The notes beneath the pieces are model-generated. The model had not been told where the DNA came from, searched no databases, and saw nothing but the letters and a program-made list of their open reading frames with translations. Below, in pieces: positions 30,679 through 31,459 of a stretch of DNA of 64,000 bases. How positions within the stretch are numbered: the stretch's first letter is position 1; the number at the start of each line of letters is the position of its first letter. The DNA is taken from NCBI GenBank assembly GCA_964632315.1, contig CAZWEM010000014.1, positions 26,779 to 90,778 of the forward strand, written 5' to 3'. The DNA is from an uncultured archaeon (GTDB lineage: Archaea; Asgardarchaeota; Lokiarchaeia; Sigyniarchaeales; SOKP01). The position numbers and the translations under genes are program-made.

Positions 30679-30871
30679 TTTAAATATCCTCCAGTAATAA
30701 ATTTGTTAATATTAAATATTATGTATTTTAAAATTATGATTATTGAATTTAATTATTATAACTTAATTAAATCGTAATTATATTTTCATTCTTTTGAATA
30801 TATTCTTCCTTAAAGTTACCAAACCATTAGGAGTAACTTAAGTGATTAATATAGTAGGACACAATCCTACA

Positions 30872-30907
30872 GTCCTTCTTTCACTAATCTTTTTTGAAAG
30901 AAATCAT
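30872..30907 (-). promoter_or_regulatory. Putative eukaryote/Loki-type SECIS element
   Basis: Minus strand reads ATGA-T-TTCTTTCA-AAAAAGATTAG-TGAAAGAA-G-GA-C: AUGA/GA core, 8-bp stem plus U-G, A-rich loop. It starts 15 nt after the TAA of the read-through ORF. Confidence 0.6.
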
Positions 30908-30921
30908 TCCAGTTTTTTATG

Positions 30922-31383
30922 TTATTTTCTTTTTAAAGCAAAATAGTGTGCAAATGTCTGATTATCCTTTCCGTATTTATTTCTAATGATTTTCTTAAAC
31001 GTTCCAAAATCTAAACGCTCTTTCATGTTATCAGCTCATCAATCAGCGTGGACAATTATTGTAATATCAGAGTTTGGAATCAAGTTAACATCGATATCGC
31101 TCCTTAAAGGCATGAATTCCTTGTTGGGTCCGTATGCATCAACTCCGCAGTCCTCATAAATCTTATTCTCTTCAGCATCCCAGATAAGTTGTAGGTAACT
31201 ATGAATTAAACCTTTATATAGAGGAAACACTGATATATCTGGATGTTCTATCATATTTTTGTCAATTTTACTTAAAGCATCGATGATTGTTCCACTATCA
31301 TCCATCTCAAGGACATATTTCACTCCTTTGGAGTGGGTTTGCTCAGGATCTGGGGCAAATATTGTTAAGTTTATCTTTTTCAT
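30922..31383 (-). CDS. Unknown protein (possibly beta-grasp-like); candidate selenoprotein with tandem in-frame TGA-TGA (153 aa if read through; 114 aa ending at 31039 otherwise)
   Basis: ...ITIIVHAD-TGA-TGA-ADNMKERLDFGTFKKIIRNKYGKDNQTFAHYFALKRK-TAA in one frame; SECIS-like hairpin in the 3' UTR; ATG 31383 follows a GGAAGTGA RBS. Confidence 0.6.
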
Positions 31384-31459
31384 GACAATTTTCACTTCCT
31401 TTTAAGAGGGGAAAGCAAATTTTTATATTTATTTGAATAAAAAATTAAATTAATTAGAT

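Follow-up and report, generated by a model that had tools for sequence, protein, structure and literature searches.

A Lokiarchaeia protein family with two adjacent in-frame UGA codons, very probably a selenoprotein recoded through a eukaryote-like 3' element

The window considered here is a stretch of 64,000 nucleotides from the genome of an uncultured archaeon of the Lokiarchaeia, and the gene in question lies on its minus strand, from position 31383 down to 30922. In all likelihood this is one gene, in which two adjacent UGA codons are predicted to be read as selenocysteine (Sec) by way of a lokiSECIS, a selenocysteine insertion sequence (SECIS) of the kind described in Lokiarchaeia, and which would yield a protein of 153 residues with a Sec-Sec pair. 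An earlier note had arrived at the same reading, a 153-residue vicinal Sec-Sec protein with a eukaryote-like SECIS in a family unlike the classic archaeal selenoproteins, and the comparisons described below give it strong support. The protein very probably represents an unlisted family of Lokiarchaeia selenoproteins inside a recoding system that is already known. The gene is made up of the following parts.

30922 to 31383, minus strand: the full predicted selenoprotein gene, 153 codons (114 + Sec + Sec + 37) and a TAA stop, based on the reading of the open reading frame (ORF), orthologues of the same architecture and an AlphaFold model.
31042 to 31383, minus strand: the N-terminal domain, residues 1-114, probably a beta-grasp domain (ubiquitin-like, similar to ThiS, MoaD and SAMP), based on database relatives, Foldseek, VIA-align and ESM features.
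31036 to 31041, minus strand: two adjacent in-frame UGA codons, predicted Sec115-Sec116, based on conservation in 136 genomes.
30925 to 31035, minus strand: a 37-residue helical tail with the motif RLD.G.FK..I..KYGK....FAHYF, translated only with UGA decoding.
30873 to 30907, minus strand: the lokiSECIS, with AUGA, a stem of 9 base pairs (bp), an 11-nucleotide (nt) loop AAAAAGAUUAG and GA, based on the rules in PMC4989117 and on covariation in the family.

The frame opens with an ATG at 31383-31381, and its 114 sense codons, ending in the residues VHAD, run into a TGA (31041-31039) that is followed directly by another in-frame TGA (31038-31036). Past the pair come 37 more sense codons (ADNMKERLDFGTFKKIIRNKYGKDNQTFAHYFALKRK) and a TAA stop at 30924-30922. 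The coordinates and sequences first reported for the ORF, the TGA pair, the tail and the hairpin are all correct on re-reading. Gene callers and NCBI annotate only the N-terminal ORF of 114-118 amino acids (aa), as a hypothetical protein. The host assembly measures 4.45 Mb with 33% G+C, the window lies on its contig C14, and the database homologues are labelled as metagenome-assembled genomes of Promethearchaeota or Lokiarchaeota. Four independent salt-marsh metagenome assemblies cover the TGA pair with zero variants and zero indels; a pseudogene or an assembly error is ruled out by this agreement and by the conservation of the locus.

That conservation is broad. In a six-frame search, 136 of the 400 genomes of the phylum contain family matches, all of them in one class and in the family-level groups f1-f7. 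The matches align to query residues ~3-156, and among those listed every one that spans the site has two or three TGA codons in a frame that is otherwise open. Seventeen further matches from more distant groups, at 24-65% identity, have two TGA codons without exception, and frame and spacing are constant across about 170 matches. Two genomes of the same order that each consist of a single contig, G138 of 6.0 Mb and G143 of 4.3 Mb, have the gene with its TGA pair intact. In the largest family-level group sampled, 116 of 134 genomes carry the family, which is also found in several other groups, often in two to five copies per genome. Among database proteins, a word-indexed search finds 151 relatives, most of which are 114-118 aa long and finish with HAD, while eight are "full-length" and have WW at the site of the TGA pair. 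A profile search of 1.84 billion representatives returns only 91 relatives, and a single-protein scan names Candidatus Harpocratesius repetitus as one carrier.

About 60 members were inspected codon by codon, and 58 loci or elements underlie the counts for tail, SECIS and neighbours. The inspected members form four groups. Subfamily A, to which the window's gene belongs, reads HAD-U-U-AD(N/V/I)M at the centre (U being Sec), subfamily B reads PD.GC-U-U-EKV, subfamily C has three Sec in SS(S/A)-U-G-U-U, and a set of distant orders reads PDAGC-U-U-(N/H/D). A tail motif, R(L).....F(K/L)..(I/L)...(Y/F)G, is common to all groups, so that similarity continues past the UGA codons in the ~60 inspected members, as it does in all site-spanning matches, which is what a check proposed at the outset had looked for. 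The host genome itself has a paralogue from subfamily B, at C44:32603-33058.

Purifying selection acts on the tail in the frame that contains the UGA codons. For the tail, the ratio of nonsynonymous to synonymous substitution rates (dN/dS) comes to 0.14 (subfamily A) and 0.12 (subfamily B), with similar values for the head, and the entropy at third codon positions is 2-2.5 times that at positions 1 and 2. In subfamily A the two codons directly after the UGA pair change only synonymously (GCT/GCC/GCA and GAT/GAC), and the third, AAY/GTN/ATT, encodes similar residues. In Sec-free homologues from Bathyarchaeia, head and tail form one unbroken chain, ..GGC-(I/S/T)(T/S/G)-(E/D)(F/W)E..Y.EF.KAL, and a closer Sec-free variant, P0135, reads PDATC-VS-FLVEKRL. 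The neighbourhoods of two of the Bathyarchaeia homologues have no shared context. Directly 3' of the UGA codons, RNAalifold finds no conserved RNA structure in either subfamily A (n=27) or subfamily B (n=16), so that a second AUGA hairpin or Sec-redefinition element at that place is not supported.

The SECIS of the window starts 14 nt past the stop, 128 nt from the second UGA, and consists of ATGA (30907-30904), a 5' arm TTTCTTTCA (30903-30895), the loop AAAAAGATTAG (30894-30884), a 3' arm TGAAAGAAG (30883-30875) and GA (30874-30873), all on the minus strand; the 9-bp helix has one U.G and 8 Watson-Crick pairs. A lokiSECIS is described as having AUGA, a 9-bp stem, an 11-nt apical loop and GA after the stem, in a position near the stop codon; the first five nucleotides of its loop are mostly A, and the final G is ultraconserved and usually preceded by A (PMC4989117). 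The window element obeys every one of these rules. The minimum-energy structure from RNAfold is this hairpin together with a second one at 30870-30854. The z-score of the SECIS as a single sequence is only -1.96, and therefore the sequence alone is not decisive. In an alignment of 58 family elements, which lie -4 to +25 nt from the stop with 101-136 nt between the UGA codons and AUGA, all nine pairs of the SECIS stem have compensatory changes, as do 5 of the 6 pairs in the second hairpin (14 of 15 for both hairpins together). Paired cells make up 90%, compared with ~50% when the partners are slid, and the observed covariation was reached in none of 500 shuffles. The distant orders have unrelated stem sequences with identical geometry. 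The hairpin is thus kept in orthologues, with compensatory changes and by the published rules, as the suggested check on it had anticipated.

A strict geometry scan of both strands of the 4.45-Mb genome gives only six sites: the window element, one after PrxL (contig C9, plus strand), one after VhuD (C52), one after a TGA-containing ORF (C8) and two that are unexplained. Behind a second VhuD gene, on the minus strand of C9, there is a looser match whose loop has 12 nt. A covariance model (R1), built from elements of the Sec-Sec family only and run with 150 of the 6653 first-look candidates scored, matches the paralogue's element at 64 bits, the C8 element at 37 bits and the VhuD SECIS at 36 bits (E 8e-4). 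The window element is more than chance. Family genes often stand in tandem; in the pairs at L048 and L053-L055 each gene has a SECIS of its own. In the tandem pairs of a B gene followed by an A gene at L011, L013 and L065, a SECIS is found only after the downstream gene, ~0.6 kb from the UGA codons of the first gene.

The host has the machinery for Sec. Its genome contains a tRNA-Sec gene (61 bits, confirmed by ARAGORN as SeC(tca)), an adjoining SepSecS gene (373 bits), a gene for an EFSec-like GTPase on the same contig ~3 kb away, a PSTK gene and two SelD genes with one in-frame TGA in each, so that all the components whose presence had been called for are there. Against the bacterial selB model, whose cut-off is 242, the EFSec-like protein reaches 237 bits. 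A strong SepSecS match is found in 132 of the 136 carrier genomes; in the other four, 66-95% complete, the match is missing (G254, G259) or weak (G130, G280). With the window protein as query, there were no family matches in several further lineages of the phylum that have SepSecS. TGA is also an ordinary stop codon in this genome: of the frames with 200 codons or more, 1880 stop at TAA (65%), 624 at TGA (22%) and 374 at TAG. Genome-wide, 18 such frames terminate in TGA TGA, and some of them could be further Sec-Sec candidates.

The relation between Sec and cysteine at the centre of the family is seen in a gapless alignment in which U is written as C. In its three centre columns subfamily B and the distant orders read C-U-U, subfamily A reads U-U-A, Bathyarchaeia read C-x-x, and subfamily C reads G-U-U, preceded two residues earlier by an additional U. 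In subfamily A it is the first UGA whose column pairs with the Cys conserved in subfamily B and Bathyarchaeia; this column is thus a Sec/Cys pair, and the others are not. Contrary to the early expectation, Cys does not stand at both Sec positions in Sec-free homologues, and in this alignment it is opposite the first UGA column alone, in paralogues and Bathyarchaeia.

The fold of the protein comes from prediction. AlphaFold2 models the read-through protein as one compact domain, with a mean predicted local distance difference test score (pLDDT) of 89.9 and a predicted template modelling score (pTM) of 0.87; the helices of the tail exceed pLDDT 90, and the Sec loop stands at ~66. The best Foldseek matches in the PDB are SAMP1 (3po0/4hro), Urm1, MoaD (1vjk) and HVO_2177, with probability ~1. 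For model residues 1-116, VIA-align gives Z of 5-6.8 to CysO (4n6e_B), SAMP1, HVO_2177, MoaD and other beta-grasp domains, with a root-mean-square deviation of 3.0-3.4 Å over 77-89 residues. ESM features of the 114-aa ORF point weakly to the ThiS and Urm1 clusters (0.77-0.81). Taken as a model, the N-terminal part resembles the beta-grasp fold of ThiS, MoaD, SAMP and Urm1. Alignment with the carrier chains extends to about model residues 113-116, which would place their terminal Gly-Gly near Sec115-Sec116. That Gly-Gly is absent here, and HAD-U-U (or GC-U-U) followed by 37 residues takes its place. Neither the 114-aa ORF nor the read-through protein nor the 34-aa tail has a family in Pfam or NCBIfam at E<=1, which leaves the protein outside PF02597 and PF09138, and a sequence-profile search of the PDB gives no match.

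The genes nearby were surveyed within 1.5 kb on either side of 58 loci. Directly upstream and on the same strand, ~25 loci of both subfamilies have a gene for a protein of ~96 aa with an invariant CxC (VDIYVPLDACACEW; examples are L018:1170-1460 and L046:251-577). It belongs to no Pfam family and folds as a thioredoxin, with the CxC apparently at the usual CxxC site, judging from secondary-structure positions. In ~24 loci there is an upstream gene similar to ACR3-type arsenite exporters (TIGR00832, 225 bits). Recurrent downstream neighbours are a YdjM membrane protein and an HD hydrolase, and three loci have a gene for the PAN proteasome ATPase downstream. At L023:736-1101 and L026:2353-2709, a gene for an HgcB-like dicluster ferredoxin with a Cys-rich end (...NSCCGG/A) lies two genes upstream; its best match is the HgcB mercury-methylation model, below cut-off. 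The flavodoxin gene beside the window's copy had been offered as a hint of a redox role. This context is not conserved, being seen in only 2 of the 58 loci, and it was dropped as a functional clue.

Several observations weigh against the reading as a Sec-Sec selenoprotein or against parts of it. The Rfam models SECIS_1 to SECIS_5 have no match in the window at the gathering threshold or in the region at E<=10, where only chance snoRNA-like rows appear; tools built for known SECIS types have been reported to miss Loki elements (PMC4989117), and the null result fits that report. The Sec positions are I/S/T/V and T/S/G in Sec-free homologues and never Cys, which means that the Sec/Cys correspondence is partial, and its sole matching column rests on the gapless alignment with U written as C. 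The structural matches are of middling strength (Foldseek E 3e-3 to 1e-2, VIA Z <7). The window's own copy has neither the ACR3 nor the thioredoxin-fold neighbour, with a CAAX protease gene upstream and the flavodoxin gene downstream. Lastly, subfamilies A-C have a codon capable of starting translation (ATG, GTG or TTG) at a distance of 3-4 codons past the UGA pair.

It is this last point that would allow the locus to be split into two genes, a beta-grasp protein of 114 aa with a double stop and a coupled peptide of 34 aa that starts at an ATG 9 nt downstream, with UGAUGAGCUGAU as its Shine-Dalgarno-like site. The two products would associate non-covalently, with the hairpin acting as a terminator or a stability element. 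In favour of this, the start-capable codon is found at tail codon 3 or 4 in most members of the three subfamilies; of 15 subfamily B genes, 13 write the valine at codon 3 as GTG, an odd choice for an AT-rich genome; and the annotated ORF stops at the UGA pair. The GTG bias could reflect shared ancestry, or an internal start when selenium is scarce. The separate 34-aa ORF, which had been held open as a caveat, nevertheless fares badly. In two close orthologues its Met is replaced by Leu (CTT) or Phe (TTT), the tail lacks an ATG in 24 of the 58 members, and five distant ones conserve the tail without any ATG, GTG or TTG. In addition, the codons between the UGA pair and the start position change only synonymously, neither frame nor spacing drifts, both stops are always TGA in spite of the prevalence of TAA, a further conserved TGA, the third, lies two codons upstream in subfamily C, and the Sec-free relatives are fused. 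The hairpin has all the features of a lokiSECIS, and such elements in this genome follow TGA-containing ORFs, apart from unexplained sites such as the one on contig C3. Two genes are thus highly improbable. It is at least as hard to believe that the UGA codons are read through as something other than Sec, by near-cognate decoding as Trp, Cys or Arg or by local reassignment. The eight database proteins with WW at the site speak for it, but every inspected locus reads TGA TGA, including L045, which matches the WW entry P0136, and for this reason the WW entries are most simply gene calls under table 4 on short contigs. Moreover, TGA is a normal stop here and even terminates the own frames of several family members, a dedicated SECIS follows the gene, and the carriers nearly always have SepSecS, the four without a strong match being the incomplete genomes named above.

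If the codons are decoded as Sec, the mRNA would extend through the SECIS, a kink-turn element ~125 nt downstream that would let EFSec and Sec-tRNA(Sec) decode both UGA codons; in the tandem pairs of paralogues, one SECIS would serve the UGA codons of two genes, as it does for HdrA-VhuD. The Sec pair would sit on a flexible loop past the last strand, where the carriers ThiS, MoaD, CysO, SAMP and Urm1 end in Gly-Gly, and the helical tail is predicted to join the beta-grasp core in a single domain. The centre, U-U in the window's protein, C-U-U in most paralogues and U-G-U-U in a third subgroup, may cycle between the selenol and a diselenide or selenenylsulfide, or may chelate a soft metalloid such as As(III), and the thioredoxin-fold CxC protein, often encoded beside an ACR3-type exporter, would serve the selenolate. 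A redox-cycled or metalloid-binding selenolate centre with a thioredoxin-fold partner is put forward tentatively, at well under an even chance. The chief functional rival accepts the Sec-Sec selenoprotein and gives it another task, as a carrier that supplies selenium or sulfur to SelD or for the thiolation of tRNA or cofactors, or as a ubiquitin-like modifier that loses its tail by cleavage at the Sec site. The beta-grasp fold, the presumed place of Gly-Gly near the Sec pair and the three loci with PAN would suit such a protein; however, no gene for an E1-like enzyme (ThiF/MoeB/UbaA), a JAMM protein or SelD is among the recurrent neighbours in the survey, the Gly-Gly itself is missing, and the tail is a confident part of a compact model rather than a disordered propeptide. 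This rival is possible, if on the unlikely side. Bolder, and doubtful, is the idea of a ubiquitin-fold carrier in which Gly-Gly thiocarboxylate chemistry has been swapped for an internal Cys-Sec-Sec, Sec-Sec or Sec-Gly-Sec-Sec selenolate under a cap formed by the helical tail, and which would make up, with the thioredoxin-fold CxC partner and often ACR3, a Lokiarchaeia-specific module for trafficking As(III) or sulfur and selenium.

The predicted protein can be set beside several known systems. The known lokiSECIS genes, PrxL, VhuD/FrhD, HdrA and VhuU/FrhA (PMC4989117, PMC11227280), use the same recoding system and the same element in the 3' untranslated region. They also include cases of several UGA codons per SECIS and of sharing in tandem (HdrA-VhuD), of which the B-then-A pairs are the counterpart. 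The Sec-Sec family is unrelated to them, has no match in Pfam or NCBIfam and has its Sec codons directly adjacent. Consecutive Sec residues were reported for the first time in an algal protein disulfide isomerase, PDI_e, with the motif GUGUU (Jiang 2020, PMC7539508), to which the U-G-U-U of subfamily C comes even closer. PDI_e is a eukaryotic protein with a thioredoxin fold, whereas the present family is archaeal and beta-grasp, and there is no sequence relationship between them. The ThiS, MoaD, CysO, SAMP and Urm1 carriers are the best structural matches, from which the Sec-Sec protein differs in the missing Gly-Gly end, the 37-residue helical tail and the lack of a PF02597 match; its chemistry would be that of side-chain selenols, in contrast to their C-terminal thiocarboxylate.

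Mammalian thioredoxin reductase ends in Gly-Cys-Sec-Gly, and the G-C-U-(U) of most paralogues resembles this GCUG as well as the CU of the SAO and HgcA proteins. The latter are selenoproteins with a CU motif in bacterial SAO and HgcA organometallic systems, and their database entries are truncated (Haft 2022, bioRxiv 10.1101/2022.07.06.499078). SAO proteins and the Sec-Sec family have in common that database entries are cut at the Sec site, tens of residues early, and that the context is rich in metals or metalloids. The folds and hosts of the GCUG and CU systems are different, the present family has a second Sec, and the window's copy has no Cys (HAD-U-U). The Bathyarchaeia homologues (UCH02879.1 and MEM2920734.1, both hypothetical proteins) have the same two-part chain, the conserved Cys that precedes the site and the Y.EF.KAL motif of the tail; what they lack is any UGA or Sec, the two positions being I/S/T and T/S/G.

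Published counts of archaeal selenoproteins are short. HdrA, Prx and MvhD were found in one study (Sun 2021, PMC9723677), the most extensive survey lists seven Asgard families, found through homology to known ones (Huang 2024, PMC11227280), and a 2026 review counts eleven archaeal families (PMC13188914). Comparison with the published Asgard lists, another of the checks proposed early on, finds the family unlisted: it is absent from the Asgard and prokaryotic selenoproteome papers compared here, of 2016-2026 (PMC4989117, PMC9723677, PMC11227280, PMC13188914), which also contain no beta-grasp selenoprotein and no adjacent Sec-Sec in a prokaryote. A wider literature search found no beta-grasp selenoprotein either.

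A few other features lie close to the gene in the window.

30854 to 30870, minus strand: a second short hairpin, GUAGGA-UUGUG-UCCUAC, 2 nt past the SECIS core, based on covariation in the family.
31392 to 31400, minus strand: a putative Shine-Dalgarno-like site AGGAAGUGA, 8 nt 5' of the ATG, suggested by reading of the sequence.
About 31421 to 31430, minus strand: a putative A/T-rich, TATA-like stretch, likewise suggested by reading of the sequence.

Across the family the second hairpin is G+C-rich, often has a loop of the (U)UGC type and lies 2-6 nt past the GA of the SECIS core. Similar hairpins are seen by eye, unscored, after the PrxL and VhuD elements of the host genome. It may belong to an extended SECIS or act as a signal at the 3' end, and no description of it was found in the selenoprotein literature compared. 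Elsewhere in the genome, on contig C3 at ~40565 (minus strand), there is a perfect lokiSECIS pattern, ATGA TTCTCATGA AAAAATGATAG TCATGAGAG GA, for which a crude scan finds no TGA-containing ORF of at least 80 aa upstream; a short VhuU-like gene before this element is possible.

The site on contig C8 follows an ORF of ~106 aa at C8:107421-107738 (minus strand; L085:1580-1900), with the sequence ...AIVLFYHSSES-U-LLSFCG..., zero Pfam matches and a perfect lokiSECIS 14 nt past its stop. Its single in-frame TGA is kept in 37 of 37 matches, from 33 of the 61 genomes of the family-level group. By its sequence this ORF is a candidate for a second unlisted selenoprotein family, and since both came out of the same SECIS scan, the Asgard selenoproteome is probably under-counted.

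The Sec-Sec family is widespread and Asgard-specific, has no Pfam name and is annotated everywhere as a truncated hypothetical protein. It would add a family to the short list of archaeal selenoproteins, and searches that begin from the SECIS should yield more of them in Asgard archaea. It would also provide a natural test of how consecutive UGA codons are decoded by a eukaryote-like SECIS without SBP2.

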